From assembly GCA_963771885.1 (NCBI GenBank), contig CAVYVF010000007.1, positions 64,001 through 128,000 on the forward strand: a DNA stretch of 64,000 bases, in the 5' to 3' direction. The notes below the pieces were generated by a model. That model was not told where the DNA came from. It did no database searches and worked only from the letters and a program-made list of their open reading frames with translations. Made by a program: the position numbers and the translations under genes. Each line of letters begins with the position of its first letter. The stretch's first letter is position 1. This document shows positions 3,399 through 17,720 of this stretch, one piece after another. The DNA comes from Candidatus Bathyarchaeota archaeon. GTDB lineage: Archaea > Thermoproteota > Bathyarchaeia > TCS64.

Positions 3399-5346
3399 TT
3401 GATTGAGTCACTCTACCAGATCGGCCTGCTCCTCCTGATCCTGAGCATCTTCTACCCCTTCGCTGTATTCATTAAGCGGAGCAGTGCCCCGCGGGCTCTC
3501 TCTAACACGTCCCTGATACTCTCCTCCCTACTGCTCACCGTGGCGTCCGTCCTACTCCTGCTCGACGGAAATGAGGTGGCTATCTTCAGCCACGTCTTCG
3601 CCCCGAGCCTCACCCTCTCCTTATCCGTCGACCGCCTCTCCGCATTCTTCGTTCTCGTGGTCTCCATCGTCTCCCTGAGCGTCGGGATATTCACGCCCGG
3701 TTACTTCCACCACGTCGAGTCCGAGGTACGCCGCAGCGTGGTCACATCCACAACAAGCATCTTCGTCGCCTCGATGCTCCTACTAGTCGTATCGCGTGAC
3801 ACTTTCTCGTTCCTCCTTTTCTGGGAGGCGATGAGCCTCTCCTCCTTCATGCTCGTCATGACGAGCTATGAGGCGAGGGAGGCGGGGAAGGCGGGGCTGT
3901 TCTACTTCGCGATGACGCAGCTGAGCACAATGTGCCTGATGGCGGGTTTCCTCGCCCTCTACGCGTTGACGGGTTCCTATTCGATCCCCTTCGCAGGCGT
4001 GATTGACCCGACTGTCCTCAGCATAATATTCGTAGTGCTCTTCATTGGCTTAGGCATCAAAGCGGGCGTCGTGCCGTTTCACAAGTGGCTTCCCTATGCC
4101 CACCCGGCGAGCCCCTCGAACGTCTCCGCTCTCATGTCAGGCGTCATGATAAAGGTCGCGATCTACGGCCTGATACGCTTCGTCTCCGGCGTCGCGTTCC
4201 CGCCGACATGGTGGGGTGGGCTCATTCTAGTCGCCGGCACCGTCTCCGCCGTCCTCGGCGTCGTCTACGCGATGAAGGAGCACGACGTCAAGCGCCTCCT
4301 CGCTTACCACAGTATCGAGAACGTCGGCATAATACTCGTCGCCTACGGGTTGAGCGTCAGTCTTCTCCAGCTACGGGCTCGCCGACCTAGCGAATCTCTG
4401 CCTCGTTGCCTCACTCTTCCACACCCTCAACCACGCCCTCTTCAAGAGCCTCCTCTTCATGACTGCGGGCTCGGTCATCAACGCGACTGGGCTGCGGAAC
4501 GTGGAGGAGCTTGGGGGGCTGATCAAGAGGATGCCCTACACGGCTGTTCTCTTCCTGATTGGGGCGGTCGCCATCTCGGGTCTGCCTCCCTTCAACGGCT
4601 TCGTGAGTGAGCTGATGATCTTCCAGGCGTTCTTCGCGGGGTGGCGCGTCGGAGGACCACTTGAGTCGGCGGTTATGCTTGCTTGCCTCGCCGTCTTTGC
4701 TCTAACGAGCGCCCTCGCCGCCGCTTGTTTCGTCAAGCTCTTCGGGACCATGTTTCTAGCAGCGCCGCGGAGCGAGGAGGCGGGTGAGGCACACGAGGTC
4801 AGGGGAGGGATGTTAGCCGGCCCCGCGATCCCGGCGGTGCTCTGCGTACTACTCGGGGTCTTCTCCTACCAGTTCCTCGCCCCCCTGGGGCTGGGCGCCT
4901 ACGTGCCAAACATGGCGGTCTTCGGGGTCGCCCTCCTCGTCTCTGGGGCCGCGGTCTTCGCCATCATCCGACTGTTCTCCAGCCGCGAGACACGCGTCTC
5001 TGAGACCTGGGGCTGCGGCATACATGAGCAGGACAGCCGCATGGAGTACACGCCTTCCGGCTTCTCCGAGCCCATCATGATAATCTTCAGGCAGATTTAC
5101 CGGACGCAGGAGCGCCTCGACCTCACCTACTATGACAGGAACCGCGTCATCCTACGCGGGGGTCTCGCCGAGGTGCGCCTCGTCAAGCTCTTTGAGGACC
5201 GGCTCTACCTCCCCGCGGCGAACGCGGCGCTCCGCGTCTCCGAGGCCTTTAACAGGGCGCAGGAGGAGCCACTCAGCGACTCCTACTTTCTCTACATCTT
5301 CGCGGCATGCCTCGCGCTTCTCATCGCCGGGGGGCTACTGCTATGA
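3399..5346 (+). CDS. hyfB: Ehr/hydrogenase-4 antiporter-like membrane subunit (HyfB/NuoL family), frameshift near 4365
   Basis: FWEAMSL, KAGVVPFHKWLPYAHPASPSNVSALMSG, LLAYHSIEN, GLPPFNGFVSE, TWGCG...MEYTPSGFSEP. Confidence 0.9.
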
Positions 5347-6284
5347 TAGAGCAACTAACCTACGTCGCCCTGAACACGCTCGTCTTCTTACTCGTCTCGC
5401 CGCTGTTCGTCAGCCTCGTGAAGAAGGTGAAGGCGTGGTGTCAGGGGAGGCGGGGGCCGCCGCTCCTACAGGGCTATTACAACGTCGCGAAGCTATTGCG
5501 TAAGGAGGTAGTCTACTCCTCGACATCCTCGTGGGTTATGCGGTTCACCCCTTATCTGAGCATGTCCGTCCTTGCTGTCGCGTCTCTGGCGGTGCCGCTC
5601 GTGCTCGTGCCCGGCGACCTCTGGGGCCTAGGCAACGTGATACTGCTCATCTACGCGCTGGCGCTCGCCAAGTTCTTCATGGCGCTCTCTGGCCTCGACG
5701 CGGGCAGCACCTTCGGCGGCATGGGAGCGAGCCGCGAGATGAGCCTCTCGGCCGTCTTCGAGCCCGTCGTCATAATGGTCTTCGCTGCCCTCAGTTACCT
5801 GCTCCACACTTCAGACGTGCCGCAGATGCTCGGCCTCGGGATCGGGGCACCTCTAATACTGATCCACCCGACGCTCATTCTGCTCCTAATCAGCCTTTTC
5901 ATAATTCTAATAGTCGAGACGGCGCGGGTGCCTGTGGACAATCCGGAGACCCACCTCGAGTTGACGATGATTCACGAGGCTATGATACTGGAGCAGTCGG
6001 GGCGCAACCTCGCACTGATGGAGTACAGCTACGCGCTGAAGAACACCCTCTTCATCGCCCTGCTAGTAAACCTCGCGTTTCCCTGGGGGCTGACGACTGA
6101 GCTGAGCCTCGTGCCCATCTGCGTAGGCGTCGCCTTATTCCTAGCTAAGGGCGTCTTGGCTTCCCTACTCATCGGGCTCGTCGAGTCGAGCCTCGCCAAG
6201 TACCGCCTCTTCAGGATGCCGAGCATGTTCACGGTGGTCCTGTTCTTCTCTTTCCTCACGATAATCCTGGAGGTGTTCAGTTAA
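5343..6284 (+). CDS. hyfC: Ehr/HyfC (NuoH-like) membrane subunit
   Basis: QGRRGPPLLQ, FGGMGASRE, ETARVPVDNPETHLELTMIHE. Confidence 0.92.
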   Translation: MIEQLTYVALNTLVFLLVSPLFVSLVKKVKAWCQGRRGPPLLQGYYNVAKLLRKEVVYSSTSSWVMRFTPYLSMSVLAVASLAVPLVLVPGDLWGLGNVILLIYALALAKFFMALSGLDAGSTFGGMGASREMSLSAVFEPVVIMVFAALSYLLHTSDVPQMLGLGIGAPLILIHPTLILLLISLFIILIVETARVPVDNPETHLELTMIHEAMILEQSGRNLALMEYSYALKNTLFIALLVNLAFPWGLTTELSLVPICVGVALFLAKGVLASLLIGLVESSLAKYRLFRMPSMFTVVLFFSFLTIILEVFS

Positions 6285-6967
6285 TGGACGCCACCTTCTA
6301 CGCCGAGGTGTTACGGGTGCTGCTGGTCCTCGTCGTCGTTACGGCGGCTGCTATAGTTGTCATGAGGGATATCCCCTTCCTCTTCGCGAGCTATGCCTTC
6401 CAGTCGCTGCTTCTCGCCCTTGTCGCCTTCGCCCTCTACGCGGAGACAGGTGAGCTCTCCCTCATCGGCGTGGGTGTGGCGACGATCGTGGGGAAGGTGC
6501 TGATAATCCCCCGCTTCATGGGCAAGATACAGGGCGACATGCGTGTGCGCCGCGACATAGAGTTCCGCATCTTAAGCCCAACGACGAGCGTGTTACTCTC
6601 CGTAGCCGTGCTCTTCATCGTCCACTACTCCTTCCAGCGCTTCGCCGCCGTGCTGGAGCTCGACACCGTCCACTACCTCGGCACAATCTTCGGGCTCCTC
6701 CTCGTCTTCATGGGGCTGCTAGTCATGTTCAGCAGGAGGAGGCCGATCACGAAGATAGTAGGCTACCTCACGATGGAGAACGGGGTTCTCCTCTTCAGCC
6801 TATTCTTCGCGGCGCTGCCCCTCGTCTTCGAGGTTATAGTGACCGTCGACCTGATCGTCGTCGTCCTGCTGGCGACTTTACTCGCCTTCGGGGAGTCCTC
6901 GGACGTTGACACCTTCCAGAGGCGTCTAGTTCCGTTCAAAACGTGGATACTGGAGGGGGACGAATGA
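6284..6967 (+). CDS. hyfE: Ehr/HyfE membrane subunit
   Basis: Hydrophobic; GYLTMENG motif; operon position. Confidence 0.85.
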   Translation: MDATFYAEVLRVLLVLVVVTAAAIVVMRDIPFLFASYAFQSLLLALVAFALYAETGELSLIGVGVATIVGKVLIIPRFMGKIQGDMRVRRDIEFRILSPTTSVLLSVAVLFIVHYSFQRFAAVLELDTVHYLGTIFGLLLVFMGLLVMFSRRRPITKIVGYLTMENGVLLFSLFFAALPLVFEVIVTVDLIVVVLLATLLAFGESSDVDTFQRRLVPFKTWILEGDE

Positions 6968-8400
6968 TAGAGTTTTACGTTCTCCTCTGCATGGCGGCGC
7001 TCGCAATCGTGGTTGCCTCGAAGAGCAGGGTGCAGATGAACTCGGTGACCGTGGTCTACGCCTTCGTCTGTCTCGCTCTCACCGTATACGGGCTCACAGT
7101 TCCCTTGCCCATCTACTACTTCGCCGACCACCTGTTCGCCTTGACGAACCTCGGGCTCTACTTGGTCGCCGGCGCCTCGGCGGTCTTCCTCCTCGCCGCC
7201 GTCTACAGCTACGGCTACGTCCAGGACCTGCTAGACGTGGAGGCGATGAAGAGGGAGAACCTTCGCCTCTTCTATATCTCTTTCAACCTGCTGCTGCTCT
7301 CCGTAGTACTCGCGTTCCTCTCGAACAGCGTTGCCCTCTTCTGGGTCTTCACGGAGCTGACGACGCTCTTCTCCTGCGTGCTGGTTGTGTCGGTTAGAGA
7401 CAGGGGCGCGATACACGCTGCGCTAAACTACGTCTTCGTCGCCTCGGCGGCGATGATTTTCAGCTTTATGGGGATACTTATGGCTTATGCTCTCACGACT
7501 GGTGGCACCGTCGCCCTCAACTGGGACAGCCTCGCCGCCGGTGCGTCCTCATTCAACGCCCATCTACTCGGGCTAGCGGCGGTCTTCATGTTCGTGGGCT
7601 TCGCCGCCAAGGCGGCCGTCGCGCCGTTCCACACGGGGCTCGCCCCCGTCTACGGGAGGGGTCCCGTCATATTCAGCGTGTTGTCGGGCTCGCTGCTGAC
7701 AGTCGGGGTGTACGGACTCATCCGAGTCAACTCGATTGTCTCCGGGACAGCCGCAGGCTCCGCCTTCTCGATGCTCCTCATAGGCTTCGGCGTGTTCACC
7801 ATCGCGGTGGCGGGCTTCACGATGCTCGCCCAGAGGAGGCTTCGCAGGCTCTTCGCCTTCTCAAGTGTAGAGAATATGGGTGTGGCGCTGATCGCAGTCG
7901 GCGTTGGGACGCCTGTGACGCTCCTCTGGGTGCTCTATCACCTCGTGGCGCACGGGTTCGCCAAGTCGCTGATCTTCTTCAGTCACGGCATTCTTCGCGT
8001 CCAGTACCGGAGCGTGGATGATGGGAAGGTGGTCAACCTGATCAGGCTTCAGCCGCTGGCGCTTGCTGGGCTCGTGGTGGGGAGCGCAGCTGTGATAGGG
8101 GCACCCCTCCTCCCCCTCTTCCTATCGAAGTTTTTCATACTATCAGAGCTAGCGAAGCTATCCCCTATCTTGCTGGGGCTAACGCTGCTCCTGCTCGCTA
8201 TAGTAGCGATCGCCGTGGGATATTCATTGATACACGTTGTGACACGTGTTGAGGAGGGTGGGCCGAAGCCCGTCTCGGTCACCCCTTCGATGTGGGCGCC
8301 GATCGCGGTGTTGATCCTTGTATTATTCGTTCTCGGCTTGGCAATGCCGGAGGGACTACATGCAGTCCTCGCCGGTGCCCTAGCCGAACTGGGGGTCTGA
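6964..8400 (+). CDS. hyfF: Ehr/HyfF antiporter-like membrane subunit
   Basis: WVFTELTT, KAAVAPFH, FAFSSVEN, HGFAKS, FLSKF. Confidence 0.88.
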   Translation: MIEFYVLLCMAALAIVVASKSRVQMNSVTVVYAFVCLALTVYGLTVPLPIYYFADHLFALTNLGLYLVAGASAVFLLAAVYSYGYVQDLLDVEAMKRENLRLFYISFNLLLLSVVLAFLSNSVALFWVFTELTTLFSCVLVVSVRDRGAIHAALNYVFVASAAMIFSFMGILMAYALTTGGTVALNWDSLAAGASSFNAHLLGLAAVFMFVGFAAKAAVAPFHTGLAPVYGRGPVIFSVLSGSLLTVGVYGLIRVNSIVSGTAAGSAFSMLLIGFGVFTIAVAGFTMLAQRRLRRLFAFSSVENMGVALIAVGVGTPVTLLWVLYHLVAHGFAKSLIFFSHGILRVQYRSVDDGKVVNLIRLQPLALAGLVVGSAAVIGAPLLPLFLSKFFILSELAKLSPILLGLTLLLLAIVAIAVGYSLIHVVTRVEEGGPKPVSVTPSMWAPIAVLILVLFVLGLAMPEGLHAVLAGALAELGV

Positions 8401-8404
8401 TGAA

Positions 8405-9952
8405 ATGACTACGATTCGCGAGTTAGCGCTAGGGCTCTTCGAGGGCATAGTGATGCACGAGGCGCATAACGAGTGCTACTTCTCAGTCGATGAGCCACAC
8501 TTCCACGATGCTATCAACGCACTATCAGGCGCCGGCTTCGGTCTCATGGGGCTCTTCTGCGTCGAGGGCTTCGAGGGCGAGGCGCTTAGCATCCTCTACG
8601 CCTTTGAGAAGAAGGACGCGGAGGGCATCCTCTTCATAGTCAGGGGCGTCGTGGGCGGCGTCGCCTCGATTGCCGACATCTACCCATCCGCCTCTTGGTA
8701 CGAGCGCGAGGCTGCCGACGGCTTCGGTATCCGCTTCGCCGACGCCTTCGACAGGCGCCGCCTTTTCCTGCACGAGGTCTACCCCGAGGGCTTCCACCCG
8801 CTCCAGAAGCTGTTCGTGAACGGCCCCATGAAGCTGGGCGGCGCGAGGGCTGAGGAGTACCGCTTCAAGCGCGTCTCCGGTGAAGGCGTCTACCAGATAC
8901 CCGTCGGCCCCGTCCACGCAGGCGTTATCGAGCCCGGCCACTTCCGCTTCAGCGTTATCGGCGAGTCCGTTTTCAGCCTCGAGCTCAGGATGTTCTGGAA
9001 GCATAGGGGCGTCGAGAAGCTCTCCGAGGGGCGCATGCCCGCCGACTGCGTTAGGATCGCCGAGTCGATAAGCGGTGACGAGTCCGCGTCGAACGCACTC
9101 GCCTACTGCATGGCGGTCGAGCGTATATCAGGAGCATCCGTCCCCGAGAGGGGGTGGGCCCTAAGGACGGTCTACGCGGAGCTAGAGCGCATCTACGCCC
9201 TTCTCGGCGATCTCGCCGGGATGGTTGTTGACGTAGCCTATCCTGTGGGCGCTAGCCCATTCTTCATCCTCAGGGAGGAGATTCTCAGGTGGAACGCCTC
9301 CCTGACCGGTTCACGCTTTCTTAAGAAGGCGGTGCGCCTCGGTGGTGCCGTCGACCCGGGGGATGAGAAGCTCGGCGAGCTAGTATTATATCTCGAGCGG
9401 TTTACGACACGCTTCTCGGAGACATGGAGGCACGTTGTAAACAACCCGAACGTTGTGGACAGGTTTGAGACGACGGGCGTGCTGAAGACGGAGCTCGTGT
9501 CTCTGCTGCACGTCACGGGGCCCGTAGCTCGGGCGTCTGGTGTCGCAGTCGATACGCGCGTTGATCATCCCTATGGTGTCTACCCGGAGGTCTTCAAGGA
9601 GATTGGACCGCAGAGCGGCGGCGACGTCATGGCGAGGTTCCAGCAGAAGTCGGGGGAGGTGCTGGCCTCGGCTACGATAATCAAAGGGATCGTGGAGAAG
9701 ATGCCACAAGGCGCGGCAAGGGTTGATGTGCCTGTCAGGGACGGCTTCGCCTGCGGGCTCGTCGAGTCGCCTCGCGGCCAGAACCTCCACTGGGTCCACA
9801 TACGCGGCGGGCGGGTGAGCCGGTATAAGGTGAGGACTGCCTCCTACTGCAACTGGCAGGCTATGGAGCATGCCGTCCCCGGTAACATCGTCCCCGATTT
9901 CCCGCTCGTCAACAAGAGCTTCAACCTCTCCTACGCGGGGACGGACCTCTAG
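8405..9952 (+). CDS. Ehr large subunit (NuoC-NuoD/HyfG-like), lacking NiFe-binding CxxC motifs
   Basis: GPVHAGVIEPGHFRF, HRGVEKL, ESPRG, NKSFNLSYAGTDL; ESISGD in place of RxCGxC and no DPCxxC. Confidence 0.9.
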   Translation: MTTIRELALGLFEGIVMHEAHNECYFSVDEPHFHDAINALSGAGFGLMGLFCVEGFEGEALSILYAFEKKDAEGILFIVRGVVGGVASIADIYPSASWYEREAADGFGIRFADAFDRRRLFLHEVYPEGFHPLQKLFVNGPMKLGGARAEEYRFKRVSGEGVYQIPVGPVHAGVIEPGHFRFSVIGESVFSLELRMFWKHRGVEKLSEGRMPADCVRIAESISGDESASNALAYCMAVERISGASVPERGWALRTVYAELERIYALLGDLAGMVVDVAYPVGASPFFILREEILRWNASLTGSRFLKKAVRLGGAVDPGDEKLGELVLYLERFTTRFSETWRHVVNNPNVVDRFETTGVLKTELVSLLHVTGPVARASGVAVDTRVDHPYGVYPEVFKEIGPQSGGDVMARFQQKSGEVLASATIIKGIVEKMPQGAARVDVPVRDGFACGLVESPRGQNLHWVHIRGGRVSRYKVRTASYCNWQAMEHAVPGNIVPDFPLVNKSFNLSYAGTDL

Positions 9953-9960
9953 GTGATTTC

Positions 9961-10483
9961 ATGGAGACTGTAAAGAGACTCATTGGGCGGAAGGCGACGG
10001 AGGATTTCGTGCTACGCGATGAGGAGTTTGAGGCTGCTCGGCGCACAGCTCAAGCGTCAAATAGACGCCGTCTTCGGGCGAAGCATCGCGATACGCGAGG
10101 TCGACACTGGCAGCGACAACTCACCCGAGATTGAGTTGAACAACCTCGCCACCCCCTACTATGATATAGAGCGCTTCGGTGTGAGCTTCGTCGCATCGCC
10201 CCGCCACGCGGATGTCCTCGCTGTAACCGGCCCAGTCACCCACAACATGGTGGAAGCGCTTCTGAAGACATACGAGGCGACGCCCAGTCCCAAATTCGTC
10301 GTCGCTGTGGGGGATGACGCTTGCGGCACAGGCGTGTTCAGCGAGTCTTATGCGGTTATCGGCTCCGTTGAGAAGGTGATACCCGTCGATCTGAAGATAC
10401 CTGGCGACCCACCGACGCCTACAGAGATAATGAAGGGATTGCTCGCCCTCATGAGGGTGGCGCGTGAAAGACGCGGGGCATAA
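9961..10483 (+). CDS. Ehr small subunit (NuoB/HyfI-like) with Cys ligands replaced; frameshift near 10028
   Basis: YYDIERFGVSFVASPRHADVLAVTGPVT; ATG at 9961 joins the listed ORF after a 1-nt shift in a T run. Confidence 0.88.
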
Positions 10484-11504: not shown

Positions 11505-11611
11505 GCGACAAACCATAGGCTGGGGGATTTGATATAAAGATTTTCGTCAGGCTGGGCTGGCTGAGGGCTCCATGCAAAACAATAAAAGCCGTGGGGGGAA
11601 AGGGAGACAAA

Positions 11612-12112
11612 TTGGAACCCCCTTCACCGGATGCTAATAGGCTGGTCGATGACATCTACCCCAGCTACGCGGGCTACACCCCCATACAGAGTGCCCTGAT
11701 ACCCATCCTCCAGGAGATACAGAAGAAGGCGGGGTACCTCCCCCCTGCTTCTCTGGCGCGCGTAGCGGAGCTGCTACACATCCCCCCGAGCCAGGTCTAC
11801 GGCGTCGCCACATTCTATCACCAGTTCCGCCTCCGCCCCAAGGGGGAGCACCTAATCACGGTCTGTAGAGGGACCGCCTGCCATGTCAAGGGGTCGCAGG
11901 ACACCATCAACTACATCAACCAGCAGCTCGGCATCAAGGCGCCTCAGGACACGTCGCCGGACGGCGCCTTCACCGTCCAGCAGGTCAGGTGCCTCGGTGC
12001 ATGCGGACTCGCCCCTGTGATAAAGGTCGATGAAACCGTCTACGGGAAGGTCGACCACGCGAAGATCAGGGGCATCCTGAAGGCGATCAGGAAGGGAGGT
12101 AAACCGGAGTGA
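11612..12112 (+). CDS. NuoE/HydC-like [2Fe-2S] diaphorase subunit
   Basis: VYGVATFYHQF, VCRGTACHVKG, RCLGACGLAP. Confidence 0.93.
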   Translation: MEPPSPDANRLVDDIYPSYAGYTPIQSALIPILQEIQKKAGYLPPASLARVAELLHIPPSQVYGVATFYHQFRLRPKGEHLITVCRGTACHVKGSQDTINYINQQLGIKAPQDTSPDGAFTVQQVRCLGACGLAPVIKVDETVYGKVDHAKIRGILKAIRKGGKPE

Positions 12113-13959
12113 ACGGGCTGATGGACCGCTGCGACAAGGATGATACGCTATACGGGGCTGGAGGCATCAGGGTCACCGTCGGGATGAGCACGTGCGGGCT
12201 CGCCTCGGGCGCTCAGGCCGTTTACGACGCGCTCCACGGGGAGTTTGCCCGGAGAGGACTGCACGCGAAGCTTGTCCCCGTTGGGTGCATGGGCTCCTGC
12301 TACGCTGAGGTCATCGTCGAGGTGACCCGGAAGGGCTACCCCACAGCGATATACAGCGACGTGACGCCCACGAAAGTGCCGGATATCCTCGACTCCTATC
12401 TATCGGGGGACGTATCCGGCGCACTTGCACTCAGATCCAAGACCGGGAAGATGAGGGGCGAGGAGACGGTTCCGCTCATAGAAGAGCTGCCCTTCTTTAG
12501 GCACCAGACGAGGAGGGTGCTAAAGAACTGCGGGGTCATCGACCCCGAGTCAATCGACGAGTACATCATCGCAGGCGGCTACCGCGCCCTCTCAAGGGTC
12601 CTCAAGGAGATGACCCCGGAGCAGGTGATAGCAGAGGTCTCCGCCTCCGGGCTCAGGGGGCGCGGAGGGGCGGGCTTCCCCGCGGGGCTCAAATGGAAGT
12701 TCTGCAGGCAGGTCCCCGGCGAGACCAAATACATGATCTGCAACGCGGACGAGGGCGACCCCGGGGCATTCATGAACCGCCTTACGGTCGAGGGCGATCC
12801 CCACAAGGTGCTTGAGGGACTGATAATCGCGGGCTATGCCATCGGTGCACACGAGGGCTACATATTCGTACGCGCCGAGAAGCCTCTCATGGCTGAGCGC
12901 CTTGAGACCGCCATCGCGCAGGCGAGGAAGAACGATCTACTAGGGAACAACATCCTCGGCTCGGGCTTCGGCTTCGACGTTAAGATAATGCTGAGTGCGG
13001 GTGCCTTCGTATGCGGTGAGGAGACGGCGCTCATCGCGGCGATCGAGGGCAAGAGGGCGATGCCCCGGGCGCGCCCGCCGTTCCCCGCCACGCAGGGGCT
13101 GTGGGACAAGCCCACCACGATAAACAATGTCGAGACGCTCGCACACGTCCCTCTCATACTCGCCGAAGGCGCGAAGGAGTATGCTGGCGTCGGCTCTGAG
13201 AAGAGCAAGGGAACCAAGGTCTACTGCCTCGCCGGCGACGTGGAGCGCACCGGCGCCGCCGAGGTCCCTATAGGGACAACCATCAGGAGGCTCGTCTTCG
13301 ATATCGGAGGTGGCGTCCCATTCGGGAAGAAGTTCAAGGCGATACAGATCGGCGGACCCAGCGGCGGCTGCCTCCCCGAGAAGTTCCTCGACCTCCCCCT
13401 CGACTACGAGTCGCTGCAGTCGGCGGGCGCCATCATGGGCTCCGGCGGCATCGTCATAATCGACGAGGACACGTGCATCGTCGACCTCGCCAAGTACTTC
13501 CTCAACTTCACCACCGCCGAGTCCTGCGGGAAGTGCTCCCCGTGCAGGATAGGGCTGCAGAGGATGCTCGAAACCATCACCAGAATCACCGAAGGTAACG
13601 GTACTGATGCGGACCTCGCCGCGCTGCGCGACATATCCGTCGCCGTGGCAGACTCGAGCCTCTGCGCCTTAGGGCGCACGGCGCCTAATCCAGTACTCAG
13701 CACCATGAAGTACTTCCCCGAGGAGTACCAGGCACACGTCGAGGAGAAGCGCTGCCCCGCCCACGCCTGCGTAGCGATGAACAAGGGCTACGCGGTCGAT
13801 GAGGCGGAGTGCAAGGGCTGCGGGCTCTGCGCCAGTAAATGCCCGACGAACTCGATAAACGTCGAAGCCATGAAGGCGAGCATAGACGCCGCCAAGTGCA
13901 TCAGATGCGGGCAATGCGTAAACGAGTGTCCCTTCGGGGCGATTAAGGAGGTGTGGTGA
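12109..13959 (+). CDS. NuoF/HydB-like FMN/NAD(H)-binding subunit with N-terminal [2Fe-2S] domain and C-terminal 2x[4Fe-4S]
   Basis: SGLRGRGGAGFP, CNADEGDPGAF, GAFVCGEETAL, ESCGKCSPCR, two CxxCxxCxxxCP at C-term. Confidence 0.95.
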   Translation: MNGLMDRCDKDDTLYGAGGIRVTVGMSTCGLASGAQAVYDALHGEFARRGLHAKLVPVGCMGSCYAEVIVEVTRKGYPTAIYSDVTPTKVPDILDSYLSGDVSGALALRSKTGKMRGEETVPLIEELPFFRHQTRRVLKNCGVIDPESIDEYIIAGGYRALSRVLKEMTPEQVIAEVSASGLRGRGGAGFPAGLKWKFCRQVPGETKYMICNADEGDPGAFMNRLTVEGDPHKVLEGLIIAGYAIGAHEGYIFVRAEKPLMAERLETAIAQARKNDLLGNNILGSGFGFDVKIMLSAGAFVCGEETALIAAIEGKRAMPRARPPFPATQGLWDKPTTINNVETLAHVPLILAEGAKEYAGVGSEKSKGTKVYCLAGDVERTGAAEVPIGTTIRRLVFDIGGGVPFGKKFKAIQIGGPSGGCLPEKFLDLPLDYESLQSAGAIMGSGGIVIIDEDTCIVDLAKYFLNFTTAESCGKCSPCRIGLQRMLETITRITEGNGTDADLAALRDISVAVADSSLCALGRTAPNPVLSTMKYFPEEYQAHVEEKRCPAHACVAMNKGYAVDEAECKGCGLCASKCPTNSINVEAMKASIDAAKCIRCGQCVNECPFGAIKEVW

Positions 13960-14790
13960 TTGAGCATCGAGATAACCATAGACGGGCGCAAGGTCAAGTG
14001 CGAGCCGAACCAGTCGATCCTCGACGTCGCTGAGGCGAATGGGATACACATCCCGACGCTCTGCCACCACCCTCACCTCAGAGCCACTGGCGCGTGCAGG
14101 ATGTGTGTCATCGATCTCGGGCGCCCCGACAGGCTCGAAGCAGCCTGCACGACCCCGGTCGCCCCTAACATGGTCGTCAACACAGCAAACGACAGGGTCA
14201 CGAGGGCGAGGAAGACGACCCTCGAACTCATCCTCTCCAACCTCGGCGTCGAACCAGAGGCGCTAAAAAAGAGCGACGGGAACAAGCTGCTGGAGCTAGC
14301 AAAGGAGCTTGGCGTCGACACGCAAGCCCTCAGGTTCAAGCCGCCGAAGGCGGAGCCGAGACAGGTCGACAGCCGTAACCCCGTCATCATCAGGGACAGG
14401 GACAGGTGTATACTCTGCGGGCGCTGCGTGAGTGCATGCAACGAGCTTCGCCACTACGGCGTCCTCAACTTCGAGGGGCGCGGGTACAACACGGACGTGG
14501 TCTCAGGCCTCGTCGAGCCGCTCCTAGAGTCTGGCTGCGCCTCGTGCGGCGAGTGCGTCGAGGTCTGCCCTACGGGTGCCTTCAAGACGCTGGCGAAGGA
14601 GCTAGTGCAAGGCGAGGTCGACACCCTCATCGAGACGGGTTTGGCCTTGCCCTCCTCGGCTGCGACGCAGTCGGCGAGGAGCAGGCTCGGGTTACCACCC
14701 ATCGATAACAGTGGCGCAGGTGACCTGCCCAAGATCGCGCGTAAAACTAGGCTTCAATGCAAGACCGTTAAGGAGGCTGAAACGCAGTGA
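13960..14790 (+). CDS. NuoG/HydA-N-like Fe-S subunit ([2Fe-2S] + 2x[4Fe-4S]) with HdrC-like C-terminal tail; no catalytic domain
   Basis: IPTLC...GACRMC...ACTT; CILCGRCVSAC; CASCGECVEVCPTGA. Confidence 0.9.
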   Translation: MSIEITIDGRKVKCEPNQSILDVAEANGIHIPTLCHHPHLRATGACRMCVIDLGRPDRLEAACTTPVAPNMVVNTANDRVTRARKTTLELILSNLGVEPEALKKSDGNKLLELAKELGVDTQALRFKPPKAEPRQVDSRNPVIIRDRDRCILCGRCVSACNELRHYGVLNFEGRGYNTDVVSGLVEPLLESGCASCGECVEVCPTGAFKTLAKELVQGEVDTLIETGLALPSSAATQSARSRLGLPPIDNSGAGDLPKIARKTRLQCKTVKEAETQ

Positions 14791-15674
14791 CACACAGCTA
14801 CGCCTTCTTCACAGGGTGCCAGATGCCCATCCGCCAGCCCCACATCGAGTACGTCACGAGGAAGATAATGCCAGAGCTCGGCGTCGAGCTGGTCGACGTC
14901 AAGGGCTTCACATGCTGCCCCGAGCCCGTCGCCGTGGGTCTCCAGGACAGATTCGCCTCGACCGCCATCGCGGCGCGGAACATCGCCGTCGCCGAGGAGC
15001 AGGGAGCAGACCTCATGACAGCCTGCAACGGCTGCTACTTCACGCTCAGGCACGCGGTCGAGGAGCTCCGTGACGCGGGGACGAGGGTTAAGGTGAACGA
15101 GGCACTCGCCGAGACCGGGCACACATACCGAGGAACCGCTTCCGTCAAGCACTTCGCACAGGTTCTCAGGGACGACGTGGGCATCGAGGCGATCAGGCGC
15201 GCGTCAAAGCACCAGCTAACCGGGCTGAACGTCGCTGCGCACACGGGGTGCCACTTCTCAAACCGCATGGGCGAGGACGCCAAGCTCCTCGACACGCTCA
15301 TAGAGGCGACGGGGGCAAAATCGATAGCTTACGAGGATAAGAACCTCTGCTGCGGCTGGACGCTCGGCACCTACGGGAAGCCCGAGGAGGGCTACGCGTG
15401 GCTCAAGAAGAGGCTCGACTCCATGAAGGCGGGAGGAGCAGAATGCATCGCCGTAATCTGTCCCCAGTGCCTGCAGCAGTTCGACATGGGGCAGCTCATA
15501 GCGTCGAGGAAGGTCCAGTTAGCATACAAGCTACCCGCCCTCTTCTACCTGCAACTACTCGGGGTCGCCATGGGGCACACGCCGGAGGAGATGCAACTCA
15601 GTGCTGACAGGGTCAAGGAACCCGCCCTCGACGAGAAACTGAGGAAACTGCGGCGCCTGAGTCCCCGCAAGTGA
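14787..15674 (+). CDS. hdrB: Heterodisulfide reductase subunit B (two CCG domains)
   Basis: FFTGC...TCCPEP...ACNGCY and HTGCH...LCCG...ICPQCLQQFD. Confidence 0.92.
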   Translation: MTHSYAFFTGCQMPIRQPHIEYVTRKIMPELGVELVDVKGFTCCPEPVAVGLQDRFASTAIAARNIAVAEEQGADLMTACNGCYFTLRHAVEELRDAGTRVKVNEALAETGHTYRGTASVKHFAQVLRDDVGIEAIRRASKHQLTGLNVAAHTGCHFSNRMGEDAKLLDTLIEATGAKSIAYEDKNLCCGWTLGTYGKPEEGYAWLKKRLDSMKAGGAECIAVICPQCLQQFDMGQLIASRKVQLAYKLPALFYLQLLGVAMGHTPEEMQLSADRVKEPALDEKLRKLRRLSPRK

Positions 15675-15702: not shown

Positions 15703-17720
15703 ATGTTCAAGAGGGTCTACGAGGAGCTGAGCCGCGAGGTCTCTGGCGAGATAGCATTCAATCACGTCGCCGAGGTCTCGCGCCACCACAGGATTCAGGT
15801 CAGCCCCGGCATCAGGGCGGCGGTCAACTACGCGACGGAGACGCTGAAGGGCTACGGCCTCGGCGTCGAGATAAGGCGCTACAAGTCAGACGGTAAGGCT
15901 CTCGCTTGGAGCAGCCCCATGTTCAAGGAGTGGAGCTGCGACGGCGCGGAGCTGAAACTCATCGAGCCCGCGGGGGAGGCGCGGTTCCTCGCCCGCTTCA
16001 GCGAGAACAAGATGAGTATAATCCAGCGCAGCCTGCCGACTCCCAAGGGAGGCGTCGACGCTGAGGTCGTCATCCTCAGGAAGGGCGAGGAGGAGTCCGA
16101 CTACAAGGGGCTCGACCTCAAGGGGAAGGTCGTCCTCACGGACGGCGACGTGTCACGCGTCAGAGACCTCGCCGTCGGTCGCCACGGAGCCCTGGGCATC
16201 CTCTACGACGGTATGTGGCTCAGGGAGCCCAACCTCAGGGAAGGCGAGCTCGACGACGCGATGAAGTACACGAGCTTCTGGTGGTACGGCGACGAGGCGC
16301 CGTGCTGGGGCTTCGTCCTCACGCCCCGGACGGGGCGCTGGCTGCGTAGGCTCGTCGAGAAGAGCAAGACTCCAGTCAAGGTCCACGCGGAGGTCGACTC
16401 GAGGCTCTACCCCGGGGAGATGGAGAACTGCGTAGCGACCATCCCTGGCGAGTCGAAGGAGCTGGTCGTCGTCATCGCCCACATCTGCCACCCACAGCCG
16501 AGCGCGAACGATAACGCCTCGGGTACAGGCGCCGCGATGGAGGCGGCGAGGGCGCTGCAGAGGCTGGTCGCTTCGGGGAAGCTGGCGAAGCCCAGGAGGA
16601 GCATAGTGTTCACCCTCGTCCCCGAGATGTCAGGCACCTACCCGTACCTCGCAGAGAACGAGGCGCGGATATCCGACATGGTCGCGGCTCTCAACCTCGA
16701 TATGGTGGGTGAGAACCAGAACCTATGCGGAGGCCCCCTCATCGTGGAGAGGACGCCTGAGTCGTGCCCCAGCTACGTGAACAGCCTCATGGAGTCCATC
16801 TACGACTCGGTGAAGAATGAGGCGAAGAACCTCGGAGGCACAAGCAGCTACGCTCTATTCAAGCACGCGGTGACGCCCTTCAGCGGCGGGAGCGACCACT
16901 ACGTCTACAGCGACCCTACCGTCGGCGTCGCCTGCCCCATGATGATACAGTGGCCTGACAAGTTCTACCACACTAGCGCCGACACCATTGACAAGGTTGA
17001 CCCCGAGATGCTCAGGAAGGTGGCGTTGATGACGGCGACCTACGCATACTTCATCGCCGATGCAGGAGCGGAAGAGGCGCTCTGGCTAGCCTCGGAGACC
17101 GCGTCGCGTGAGAAGCGCGCCATCATGCAGAGGATACAAGACGCTGTGACGACCGCGTCAAACGGCGATGTGGAAGAGTGCGTCCGAGGAGCTTCTAAAA
17201 CTGAGGGACCGAGTTGACTACTGGACTGGGCGAGCCGCTGAGGCGGTGATGTCCACCAAGCGTCTCGCGCTAAAGGACAAACGCCTAGACTCAGTCATCA
17301 CAGAGCTGGTCGCTAACCTCGAATCATCAACCAAGGCTGAGAGGAGAAACGCCGAGGCGGCGATCAGGAGGCTCGCCGAGGCGAAGGGCTGGACGCTCAA
17401 GCCGAGGAGTAAGAGGCTAACCAAGCTAGAGAAGGAAGCCACAGACGATCATTCCCGTGAGAAAGTTCAAGGGCCCCGTGTCGACGCGCCAGTGGGTGCG
17501 CAAGCTCTCCCCCGAGGACCGCGAAGCCTTCTACAGGTTCGGGAAGCAGCACAAGGAGGCTTCGGGCATGGAGACCCTTGCCGTCTACTGGGCTGATGGG
17601 AAGAGAAGCCTACTTGAGATCGCGCGCCTTGTTGAGCTGGAGTCGGGGAGGAGCGATCTTCCTTACCTCGTCGGCTACTTCGGATTCATTGAGAAGATGG
17701 GGCTCGTCTCCCTCCGGTAA
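15703..17720 (+). CDS. DUF4910/M28-like metallopeptidase with PA-like insert and C-terminal wHTH (two frameshifts near 17185 and 17445)
   Basis: AHICHPQPSANDNASG, VPEMSG, NLDMVG, GGSDH, YHTSADT; C-term WADGKRSLLEIA. Confidence 0.82.

Follow-up and report, generated by a model that had tools for sequence, protein, structure and literature searches.

Four adjoining genes of Candidatus Bathyarchaeota archaeon appear to encode a four-part enzyme, apparently of previously undescribed design, in which a bifurcating-type NADH/ferredoxin core (BfuB and BfuC) is joined directly to HdrB and which would add a new third-substrate type to the Bfu family. We call it Hdr-Bfu, and we give roughly even chances to the reading that it is one soluble enzyme in which NADH and reduced ferredoxin jointly reduce a disulfide other than CoM-S-S-CoB. 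The genes lie in a stretch of 64,000 nucleotides (assembly GCA_963771885.1, contig CAVYVF010000007.1, positions 64,001-128,000 of the forward strand), hereafter the window. The initial annotation had proposed a HydBC-type core wired straight to HdrB without HdrA, and synteny, a fused HdrC tail and a docking model all argue for this wiring.

All four open reading frames were recovered on the plus strand where that annotation had placed its four abutting or overlapping genes, with overlaps of 4, 0 and 4 bases at the junctions (Table 1). From the sequence, bfuC starts with a TTG at 11612 behind a GGGAGA-type site, an in-frame GTG at 11591 being the alternative. The reported absence of hdrA and mvh from the window was borne out, the genome's own HdrA, HdrC and MvhD/G/A giving no match there as queries, and no flx gene appeared among the 43 window reading frames scanned with Pfam. 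The reported absence of hdrC holds for a separate gene, but not for residues 209-276 of subunit 3, which are a C-terminal tail of HdrC.

Table 1. Features of the cassette and its 3' neighbor, in window coordinates
Feature	Position	Strand	Evidence and residues
BfuC (HydC/NuoE)	11612..12112	+	PF01257, E 8e-50; thioredoxin-like, [2Fe-2S] C1 cluster, four Cys
BfuB (HydB/NuoF), 616 aa	12109..13959	+	PF01512, PF10589 and two Fer4 (Pfam)
FMN/NAD loop ADEGDPGAFMNR of BfuB	12745..12780	+	A220 and M222 of bifurcating type; D217; clade-specific N223 replacing Asp
Subunit 3 (BfuA::HdrC tail), 276 aa	13960..14790	+	Fer2_4 and Fer4 only (Pfam)
BfuA part of subunit 3, residues 1-208	13960..14583	+	[2Fe-2S] A1 (C35, C46, C49, C63); [4Fe-4S] C150-C160 and C193-C203
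Decayed A3 site	14236..14283	+	His-x3-Cys-x2-Cys-x5-Cys ligands replaced (alignment with 8a6t_A, 7q4v_A)
HdrC-derived tail, residues 209-276, predicted HdrB clamp	14584..14790	+	HdrC similarity; most of the modelled interface
HdrB	14787..15674	+	CCG, two copies (Pfam)
M28-family peptidase gene	15703..17217	+	PF04389; 28 bases 3' of hdrB

By sequence comparison, subunits 1 and 2 have the features published for Bfu proteins. Gene 1 is the NuoE/HydC first proposed, with PF01257 and the four C1 cysteines (Cys 92, 97, 134 and 138, numbered from the 11591 start), and gene 2 is the full NuoF/HydB, with an N-terminal thioredoxin domain, the FMN/NAD site, the B1 [4Fe-4S], the Zn/B2 site and the C-terminal 2x[4Fe-4S]. 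The latter carries the B1 four-helix bundle, the SLBB region and Cys 473/476/479/519 and 568-607, keeps ADEGDPGAFM and H543-x5-C549PAHAC554, and over its full length has as best solved matches the bifurcating BfuB chains 9bov_B, 7t2r_B, 8oh5_B, 9n5u_B and 7q4v_B. The signatures of bifurcating beta subunits (A/E232, M234, F367 and GGPSG; Losey 2020, PMC7311640) correspond to A220, M222, F300 and G415-G419, the semiquinone-stabilising Asp (D232 in T. kivui, D201 in A. woodii) aligns with D217, and F325, which sits where the NADP-using HydB of T. kivui has Arg340, would point to NAD rather than NADP as the cofactor. Among 10 aligned full-length cassette BfuB sequences the B2/Zn ligands C456, T494, H543, C549 and C554 are invariant, and GGPSG and all eight B3/B4 Cys positions are kept almost without exception. 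The clade-specific changes near the flavin, N223 and K258, are common to the sister formate dehydrogenase-type (Fdh-type) Bfu and so are older than the acquisition of HdrB. These two changes are a possible point against the enzyme reading favored here. The N-terminal B5 domain has three Cys (29, 60 and 64), the same three as in 9bov_B and 9n5u_B, a site that may bind either [2Fe-2S] or Zn.

Subunit 3 is, judged from its sequence, a chimera of a BfuA/HydA-type Fe-S N-terminus and the HdrB-binding tail of HdrC. It resembles the N-termini of HydA, NfnA and WorA over residues 3-209 only, all 47 aligned relatives share its 12 Cys, and no H-cluster, molybdopterin or FAD domain was found in its 276 residues. 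The first description of gene 3, a HydA/NuoG N-terminal module lacking an H-cluster or Mo domain, was correct as to the missing domains but has to be amended for the loss of the A3 His-Cys3 ligands and for the fused HdrC tail. The His-Cys3 motif is missing from all chimera sequences tested, while most sister Fdh-type BfuA proteins have it. The tail is kept across the chimera family and matches the genome's own HdrC (E 5e-8, with no other match under E 1) and, in a profile-profile comparison, the HdrC family (probability 99.3%). HdrC is not among the top 50 Foldseek or the top 60 PDB sequence matches for subunit 3, so the link to solved HdrC goes via an intermediate family, the genome's HdrC family, which aligns with solved HdrC through the tail region. 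The locus has no free hdrC, and subunit 3 itself contains the HdrC-type tail and an equivalent 2x[4Fe-4S] pair. The layout, with A1, A2 and A4 only in BfuA and an extra subunit for the third substrate, is that of Bfu Type 2 (Schut et al. 2022, PMC9304861); the catalytic domain that Type 1 enzymes have inside BfuA was not found in subunit 3.

Structure modelling supports the docking of HdrB by subunit 3. An interface between the two proteins, which the initial annotation had anticipated, was obtained with a score of 0.83 against 0.00 for the best of three controls. Of 157 solved complexes 116 passed the score mark applied, as did 2 of 215 mismatched pairs; these are rough counts from runs on own alignments. 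The model runs share at least 80% of contacts, with a partner pLDDT of at least 80, and set tail residues 210-266 and cluster ligands 192-201 against the HdrB CCG loops 43-50 and 186-198. Because HdrBC is already a solved pair, the pass may reflect likeness to HdrBC. The single-chain model of subunit 3 is weak (pLDDT 61.7).

The fourth protein is an HdrB with all ten CCG Cys, as annotated; these and His156 align with solved HdrB, which the protein matches with E 8e-66, and it scores 247 bits, below the TIGR03288 cut-off of 345 bits. The ten Cys and the His ligand (His156 in the window's HdrB) are kept in 25 of 25 cassette HdrB rows, and the Cys are invariant in all 54 rows of a wider alignment. 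The pocket is altered, with CCPEP and CCGW-x4-YG motifs. The CoM/CoB contacts of methanogen HdrB are Gly46, Gly198, Arg201, Arg14, Arg240 and Phe233 (5ODR numbering, PMC13261682); Arg14 is kept (R in 24, K in 1), and in all 25 cassette sequences Gly46 is replaced by V/T/A/F, Gly198 by L/I/F, Arg201 by Y, Phe233 by Q and Arg240 by M/T. The Gly46 and Gly198 contacts are made by backbone NH, and 8rvu is also without Arg240, which makes these changes weaker evidence than those of Arg201 and Phe233. Trp191 and Tyr196 could block the pocket rather than reshape it, as in BamD. No mcrA was found in the 6 cassette genomes searched out of 7 (72-97% complete), and no comA in one cassette genome, in a search that likewise gave no match for the M. 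acetivorans control, other CoM routes being possible. The substrate of HdrB is probably a disulfide other than CoM-S-S-CoB, in keeping with the earlier suggestion that the thiols may not be CoM and CoB.

The four genes are a conserved cassette of one family of Bathyarchaeia, and the expectation that relatives would share nuoE-nuoF-nuoG(N)-hdrB synteny without hdrA/hdrC was confirmed. Among 31 distinct contigs (7 genome and 24 metagenome, some near-identical, most with short flanks), hdrB lies directly 3' of the chimera gene in all 31, bfuB directly 5' of it in 22 of the 23 with upstream sequence, and bfuC 5' of bfuB in the 9 that reach that far. The flanking genes differ between contigs, and no hdrA or mvh match was found in these mostly short-flanked loci. 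The HdrBs of the cassette group in a clade of their own (SH-aLRT 89), and the nearest relatives of subunits 1-3 belong to Type 1 Fdh-BfuABC within the same archaeal family (identity of 60-69% for BfuB and 49-57% for the BfuA N-terminus), with one bfuB per genome. Sequences and trees indicate that the cassette arose when Fdh-type BfuABC recombined with an hdrC-hdrB-fdhA operon that has no hdrA and is found in the same order. This HdrB subfamily also occurs with formate dehydrogenase, in 28 of 29 loci, and in contig L092 a GltD-domain gene, a probable NuoF-GltD fusion, precedes this type of subunit 3 and HdrB; the closest full-length relative of that gene has the GltD domain where the ferredoxin-binding domain would be. 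These pairings speak for the electron-sink reading set out below, with formate dehydrogenase, Bfu and probably NuoF-GltD as interchangeable donors on one HdrB acceptor module.

Our literature searches found no description of this architecture, which agrees with its initial annotation as a candidate new reductase, and an Hdr-type third reaction is absent from the main-text list and Table 1 of PMC9304861. Like Wor-BfuABCSL of Acetomicrobium mobile (PDB 9MQX), BamGHI and FdhFeFe-Bfu of Clostridium autoethanogenum (PMC9304861), Hdr-Bfu combines a complete BfuBC core with a short BfuA that lacks A3 and A5 and whose C-terminal extension would dock a separate partner beside A4; unlike those Type 2 enzymes, its partner is HdrB, its docking piece a captured HdrC tail and its third substrate would be high-potential, and it would derive from Type 1 Fdh-Bfu by A3 loss. 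The uncharacterised Type 1 Fdh-BfuABC of the family, with a BfuA of about 900 aa and a TIGR01591 domain, shares the N223/K258 signature; in Hdr-Bfu its molybdopterin domain is swapped, just past the second [4Fe-4S] motif, for the HdrC tail plus hdrB. As in methanogen HdrABC-MvhAGD and HdrABC-FdhAB (PDB 5ODC, 8RVU, 7BKB, 9SFI), HdrB has two CCG non-cubane sites and would be fed by a 2x[4Fe-4S] domain bearing the HdrC tail; unlike in those complexes, HdrA (the bifurcating FAD), MvhD and free HdrC are absent from the cassette, five of the six pocket contacts are replaced, and the host gave no mcrA/comA match. The class II benzoyl-CoA reductase Bam[(BC)2DEFGHI]2 also unites a confurcating Bfu module with an HdrBC-like subunit (BamD), but there HdrA-like BamE and MvhD-like BamF sit between them and the distal cluster of BamD is broken, whereas in Hdr-Bfu the link would be direct and both HdrB cluster sites are intact. 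FlxABCD-HdrABC is an NADH-linked Hdr complex of non-methanogens in which HdrA is the bifurcation site and the NADH module is unrelated. MetFV-HdrABC-MvhD (PMC5736913) is another such link between NADH and Hdr outside the methanogens; here too HdrA is the bifurcation site and the NADH module is unrelated.

We propose that BfuC, BfuB, the BfuA::HdrC-tail chimera and HdrB form one four-subunit assembly. BfuBC would accept hydride from NADH at its FMN, accept electrons one at a time from reduced ferredoxin at the C-terminal clusters and merge them (confurcation), and the electrons would leave through B1, A1, A2 and A4, the last being the only exit because A3 is gone. The HdrC tail would keep HdrB pressed to A4, the two [4Fe-4S] of subunit 3 would replace HdrC in function, and the two non-cubane clusters of HdrB would reduce the non-CoM-S-S-CoB disulfide, for a net NADH + 2 Fd(red) + 2 RS-SR' -> NAD+ + 2 Fd(ox) + 4 thiol. 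Strict NADH/ferredoxin coupling, the direction of the reaction and the disulfide chemistry are what we infer here. The enzyme would be an electron sink in a fermenting, non-methanogenic archaeon, having taken over from an ancestral Fdh-type Bfu by domain exchange. By calculation, confurcation would release 39-97 kJ with disulfides between -290 and -140 mV, and the absence of any genomic match above the RnfC cut-off is in keeping with it. WorA is also without A3 and has its partner docked by a C-terminal helix beside A4 (PMC12318220), and BamGHI has been presented as a confurcating input, although NADH alone reduced 68% of it (bioRxiv 10.64898/2026.04.10.717634). The BamGHI case suggests that coupling may leak in Hdr-Bfu when the exit is downhill. 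Bfu enzymes with a high-potential third substrate are so far predictions (Rub- and Nuo-Bfu), none of them characterised (PMC9304861). Ferredoxin spent on a high-potential disulfide is energy wasted, a point against confurcation. The genome encodes small CxxCxxCxxxC proteins, which are candidates for the cognate ferredoxin.

The initial annotation had NADH reduce the disulfide while driving ferredoxin reduction. In such a wiring NADH would be the mid-potential donor, sending one electron of each pair down BfuA to reduce the disulfide and pushing its counterpart onto ferredoxin, and the enzyme would stand in for HdrA and Rnf alike. In all characterised Bfu enzymes (PMC9304861, PMC12318220) the BfuA arm is the mid-potential, NAD(H) the high-potential and ferredoxin the low-potential partner; mid-potential NADH would depart from this wiring, so the direction is not supported, and we consider it unlikely. 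The cofactors of both arms are present, nothing in the genome exceeded the RnfC cut-off and such a reaction would be physiologically useful, but at best it is near equilibrium, being roughly thermoneutral with a disulfide at -140 mV (-15 to +15 kJ) and uphill by 4-44 kJ once the disulfide lies between -240 and -290 mV, and the substrate is probably not CoM-S-S-CoB. The flavin-loop changes could mark altered wiring, but their presence in the sister Fdh-type Bfu dates them before HdrB. It is also improbable that Hdr-Bfu is the first reverse-wired Bfu, with NADH split between an undescribed archaeal heterodisulfide at HdrB and ferredoxin, and with an HdrB subfamily that marks a new thiol coenzyme pair, the hub for formate, NADH/ferredoxin and NADPH modules; if true, it would perform HdrA's job without HdrA. 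A plain NADH:disulfide or ferredoxin:disulfide oxidoreductase, uncoupled or leaky and with its bifurcating-type core retained by descent, would agree with NADH reducing a -140 mV disulfide downhill by 27 kJ, with the reduction of most BamGHI clusters by NADH alone and with the L092 arrangement; the near-invariance of the Zn/B2 ligands, GGPSG and the eight B3/B4 Cys in the 10 cassette BfuBs and the strict coupling of Wor-Bfu, despite both its half-reactions being downhill, make it unlikely in our view.

A further reading is a split formate dehydrogenase in which FdhA-HdrC-HdrB and Hdr-Bfu are paired via a low-potential thiol shuttle or HdrB-HdrB contact, formate/CO2 being the third substrate and HdrB a relay. 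The hdrC-hdrB-fdhA operon occurs in 5 of 7 cassette genomes (the other two are 68-72% complete) and in 0 of 15 genomes with a close fused Fdh-type BfuA, a form found in 0 of the 7 cassette genomes (Fisher p 0.0006 overall and 0.01 within one genus, values overstated because the genomes are related); both HdrB types have the same pocket, and BamD is a non-catalytic HdrBC-like relay. We nonetheless find this reading quite unlikely: the cassette is absent from 24 of the 29 genomes in which this hdrC-hdrB locus occurs, two genomes (G101 and G010) carry the hdrCB locus together with a more distant Bfu, a linking thiol couple would have to lie below about -390 mV for ferredoxin reduction to proceed, and the 54-row invariance of the cluster Cys contrasts with the disrupted distal cluster of BamD. 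Very improbable, in our estimate, is that the genes do not encode one enzyme, HdrB joining the genome's HdrA/HdrC and BfuABC feeding a different partner, for instance the membrane complex encoded upstream. Other contigs of the genome do carry several hdrA and hdrC genes, mvh, further hdrB genes and one mvhGA-hdrA-hdrA cluster that has no hdrBC, and 1.1 kb upstream of the cassette lies an Ehr/Hyf-like membrane operon, but none of the six other listed contigs that extend past bfuC has that operon upstream, the cassette HdrBs are a separate clade, and the HdrC tail fused to subunit 3 across the family makes pairing with HdrA/HdrC encoded elsewhere unnecessary.

Single-FMN bifurcation in Bfu/HydABC is unsettled, and a core whose third substrate lies above NAD in potential has so far only been predicted (Rub- and Nuo-Bfu); Hdr-Bfu, being small, soluble and encoded by four genes, with FMN and Fe-S only and no Mo, W, Ni or H-cluster maturation, would make the question directly testable. 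The two best-known bifurcation lineages swap modules, visible here as a gene fusion. Together with the sister FdhA-HdrC-HdrB operon, Hdr-Bfu points to an as yet undescribed thiol/disulfide carrier. The archaea concerned are non-methanogens abundant in sediments, and their Hdr genes usually receive a CoM/CoB annotation.

An expression look-up gave RNA-library matches to short fragments only. The M28 peptidase gene comes after hdrB in no more than 3 of the 31 contigs, placing it outside the conserved cassette, and the window's copy is shorter than the 671-aa copy in another contig (L031), probably through a frameshift.

By every sequence criterion that we tested, the four-gene cassette (Hdr-Bfu) is a member of the BfuABC (HydABC-type) bifurcating family and not of HdrABC, and it appears to be a new variant of Type 2, in which the catalytic site of the partner lies on a separate subunit. 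The four abutting or overlapping genes described in the initial annotation are present (see table), with overlaps of 4, 0 and 4 bases at the three junctions; ORF 4 is nearest to the methanogen HdrB family, yet scores below the cut-off of that family (Pfam/NCBIfam). The main text and Table 1 of PMC9304861 contain no Hdr-type third reaction, and the 17 unassigned clades in its supplement of 1558 BfuB sequences may include such operons. Searches of the openly accessible literature, together with passages of PMC5736913, PMC11631310, PMC8407382 and PMC10321748, turned up neither bfuCBA-hdrB nor hdrC-hdrB-fdhA lacking hdrA. A bacterial promoter and terminator scan, applied here to an archaeal cassette, gave nothing above shuffled sequences. 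The RNA runs (three of five listed, 80% likeness) yielded only contigs of ~150 bases, 95-99% identical, on bfuB, hdrB and the peptidase gene, mixed with foreign nuoF pieces. The M28 peptidase, seemingly split by a frameshift, has 504 aa here and 671 aa in L031, another cassette locus.

Coordinates of the cassette and of the loci compared (L, compared locus; G000, source genome; C, its contigs)
Feature	Position	Strand	Basis or remark
ORF 1, NuoE-like (bfuC)	window 11612-12112	+	Pfam/NCBIfam
ORF 2, NuoF-like with two extra Fer4 (bfuB)	window 12109-13959	+	Pfam/NCBIfam
ORF 3, subunit 3, 276-aa Fe-S protein without catalytic domain	window 13960-14790	+	Pfam/NCBIfam
ORF 4, CCG protein (hdrB)	window 14787-15674	+	Pfam/NCBIfam
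BfuB start	window 12109-12145		no Cys/His-rich extension
BfuB N223	window 12775-12777		for Asp
BfuB K258	window 12880-12882		for Tyr
Hyf/Ehr-like membrane complex operon	window 3399-10483
First antiporter gene of that operon	window 3399-4610, 4459-5346		split, probably frameshift
M28 peptidase	window 15703-17596
hdrC-hdrB-fdhA	L179:6947-10328 (G000:C23:764946-768327); also L183-L211		HdrA-less conserved operon
hdrC-hdrB-frdB-like-frdA-like-hdrA	L180:6708-13959 (G000:C23:969707-976958)		divergent from fumarate hydratase genes
hdrCBAAA-mvhD-hdrCB-mvhGA, then GcvH-like gene and lipoate-protein ligase	L181 (G000:C23:983153-999080)		large cluster
mvhG-mvhA-hdrA-hdrA::mvhD	L182:8126-15124 (G000:C2:123125-130123)		without hdrB or hdrC
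Sister-type hdrC	L085:4711-5190		divergent, just upstream of cassette
Different hdrC-hdrB pair	L087:2025-3104		after cassette
Variant cassette with a GltD-type FAD domain	L092:2-2936		upstream of chimera and hdrB

Subunit 3 was found to be a chimera. Matches to HydA, NfnA and WorA cover only residues 3-209; the HydA/NuoG N-terminal Fe-S module without a catalytic domain proposed earlier is there, but the His-Cys3 ligands of cluster A3 are missing and an HdrC-like tail had been overlooked. This cysteine-poor tail matches the HdrC encoded at C23:764946-765428 of the source genome with an E value of 5e-8, the next match among 7974 ORFs being at 1.2, and a profile-profile comparison of the C-terminal half with 19 HdrC proteins of that type gave 99.3% probability through the tail. 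The profile of these 19 proteins in turn matches, tail included, each of the 5 distinct sequences of solved HdrC that the search gave; HdrC was not among the matches listed in direct PDB searches with the chimera, and the link of the tail to solved structures thus runs via the intermediate HdrC family. The single-chain AlphaFold model is weak, and the top 50 Foldseek matches are BfuA/NuoG-like chains only. The chimera forms ~58 clusters at 90% identity and one at 50%; in an alignment of 47 clusters, 12 cysteines are invariant and the A3 motif is in none, with vestiges of it in the chimera P0053. When 1.84 billion representatives were searched with a profile built on residues 138-267, the best 150 of 4616 matches included one full-length cluster (P0036), one fragment (P0165) and no independent chimera outside the family. 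Another hybrid adaptor, in P0059 and P0060, joins a BfuA-type N-terminus to extra Fe-S and MvhD-like (PF02662) domains.

Among the 168 loci examined, the chimera occurs in 31 distinct contigs (7 genome and 24 metagenome, duplicates removed, several near-identical). hdrB follows it directly in all 31, 22 of the 23 contigs that extend upstream have bfuB before it, bfuC lies ahead of bfuB in 9/9, and no HdrA or Mvh match was obtained in these contigs, which bears out the proposed nuoE-nuoF-nuoG(N)-hdrB synteny lacking hdrA. Within the source genome, which is 92% complete and carries the window at C7:64001-128000, its own HdrA, HdrC and Mvh proteins match contigs C2, C20 and C23 only; the reported absence of hdrA, hdrC and mvh from the window holds for these queries, except that an HdrC tail lies inside subunit 3. 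The flanks vary among the 20 loci listed, and a link to the upstream Hyf/Ehr-like operon was rejected because that operon is not conserved at other cassette loci; its large subunit has no obvious Ni-binding CxxC motifs. Seven of the order's 79 genomes carry the cassette, all from two genera of a single family, and samples of 400 class and 400 phylum genomes gave no further full-length match. A record titled Desulfaltia also carries it, and because its BfuB and HdrB fall within Bathyarchaeia clades, its label or bin is doubtful. The sole exception to an upstream bfuB is L092, where the upstream gene has a GltD-type FAD domain and is probably a NuoF-GltD fusion without the ferredoxin-binding domain, and this variant is possibly NADPH-linked. 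The nearest full-length relative of that gene is P0311 (78%), a NuoF-GltD fusion lacking a ferredoxin domain; P0311 is on a record from an 86,349-base contig, and a contig of that length is also given for P0053, to which the L092 chimera is most closely related.

The match of BfuB to structures of bifurcating BfuB is full-length, whereas that to non-bifurcating NuoF covers the centre only. BfuB has A220, M222, F300 and GGPSG, in line with the bifurcating beta-subunit signature in PMC7311640, and the Zn/B2 ligands C456, T494, H543, C549 and C554 as outlined in PMC9304861. By alignment offsets, D217 corresponds to the Asp for which a role in semiquinone stabilisation has been proposed (PMC10021017), and Phe325, as in NAD-using A. 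woodii, to the T. kivui Arg340 at the NADP site, which suggests that BfuB would use NAD. N223 and K258, near the flavin, are clade-wide in cassette BfuBs and shared with the Fdh-type sister clade, and are absent from the five solved BfuB compared. Most cassette BfuBs (L032, L034, L036, L072, L079, L081, L116) have a Cys/His-rich N-terminal extension of ~40 residues, missing in the window, L031 and L085. A further Bfu type of the same genus (L009, L010, L011, L029) has a 205-aa BfuA without A3 and a CDEGDPGSFMDR flavin loop, followed in L011 by a CODH-like gene.

BfuB and BfuA have their nearest relatives in operons where BfuA (~900 aa; 736 in L051) runs into a molybdopterin domain (7/7 scanned); the one long BfuA tested for TIGR01591 passes. 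Trees were quick IQ-TREE runs with SH-aLRT only (BfuB, HdrB) or FastTree (FdhA), all midpoint-rooted. Among 67 BfuB rows, the 13 from the cassette group with one row whose BfuA is cut by the contig edge in a clade (SH-aLRT 95) nested within the Fdh-type lineage (98); among 37 HdrB rows, the 24 from the cassette group together (89), and the HdrBs of hdrC-hdrB-fdhA are their sister group (99). That operon occurs in 29 of the order's 79 genomes. In 28 of them fdhA comes directly after hdrC-hdrB, the other locus stops at a contig edge, and none of the 29 loci has hdrA within 1.5 kb. It may encode a flavin-free formate:disulfide oxidoreductase; its HdrC has an unusual first cluster motif, CxxCxxCC-x5-6-C, and its HdrB the same remodelled pocket as the cassette HdrB. 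The operon is absent from the 15 genomes with the close fused Fdh-type BfuA, the two Fdh types form separate clades, and each of the 31 bfuB-bearing genomes has one bfuB copy. The simplest history, as read from these midpoint-rooted quick trees, would be a crossover between bfuA::fdh and hdrC at the second CxxCxxCxxxCP motif that brought hdrB along. The sister-type hdrC of L085 and the hdrC-hdrB pair after the cassette in L087 are possible traces of a recombination neighbourhood.

The ten CCG cysteines and the His are conserved without exception in 54/54 HdrB rows. Of the CoM/CoB contacts of 5ODR named in PMC13261682, Arg14 is kept in 24 of the 25 cassette rows and is Lys in the other, while in 25/25 Tyr replaces Arg201, Gln replaces Phe233, the GAGGG loop has become GW-x-(L/I/F)-G and Gly46 is V, T, A or F, the adjacent Ala44 being an invariant Glu; 29 sister rows show nearly the same pattern. 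With these changes, no mcrA match in 6/6 cassette genomes searched and no comA match in the source genome (the M. acetivorans control lacks one too), the earlier suggestion that the thiol substrate may not be CoM/CoB gains support. That the pocket is kept but remodelled, with both clusters intact, would speak for another disulfide more than for a dead site, but BamD is an example of an HdrB-type site that aromatic residues can close (bioRxiv 10.64898/2026.04.10.717634). DsrC as substrate and an acetogenic role were rejected, the source genome having no dsrC or cdhC match. Lipoyl-GcvH is a candidate: there are three GcvH-like genes, none linked to the cassette, and one lies with a lipoate ligase beside the Hdr-Mvh cluster of L181, recalling the lipoate-binding partners of sulfur-oxidising Hdr. 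Several genes of that cluster are broken by apparent assembly frameshifts.

Typical disulfide potentials are -240 and -290 mV. PMC9304861 puts NADH at -280, ferredoxin at -500 and heterodisulfide at -140 mV. In characterised Bfu (PMC9304861, PMC11829005, PMC12318220, PMC13689815), the electrons exchanged between BfuA and the core are of mid potential, and the core divides them between NAD+ and ferredoxin. Confurcation of NADH and reduced ferredoxin onto the disulfide would yield -97 to -39 kJ (computed, disulfides at -140, -240 and -290 mV), and thiol oxidation the same values with reverse sign. The precedent for BfuA wiring and these energies lead us to give confurcating disulfide reduction an even chance. 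The initial annotation had instead proposed that NADH reduces the disulfide while driving ferredoxin reduction; at the same potentials this would yield -15 to +44 kJ and it runs counter to the characterised wiring, and we consider it improbable.

A leaky NADH:disulfide reductase seems to us equally improbable, and a split formate relay a shade more so. The four proteins very probably form one complex, and their action as separate enzymes has only a slim chance. ESMFold2 scored HdrB with subunit 3 at 0.83 against 0.00 for the best control (the mark is reached by 116/157 solved complexes and 2/215 mismatched pairs, and is rough here as our own alignments were used); no fewer than 80% of the contacts recur between runs, the partner has a pLDDT of 80 or more, and the modelled interface sets the tail (210-266) and cluster ligands 192-201 of subunit 3 against the HdrB CCG loops. 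The anticipated interface is thus predicted, but since HdrBC is a solved pair the model shows likeness and not binding.

For confurcating disulfide reduction, the thiol could be re-oxidised by the hdrC-hdrB-frdB-frdA-hdrA cluster of L180, itself a candidate bifurcating thiol/fumarate reductase. Its HdrB falls in a subfamily other than that of the cassette HdrB, and its Fe-S subunit is found in 65 of the 79 genomes of the order.
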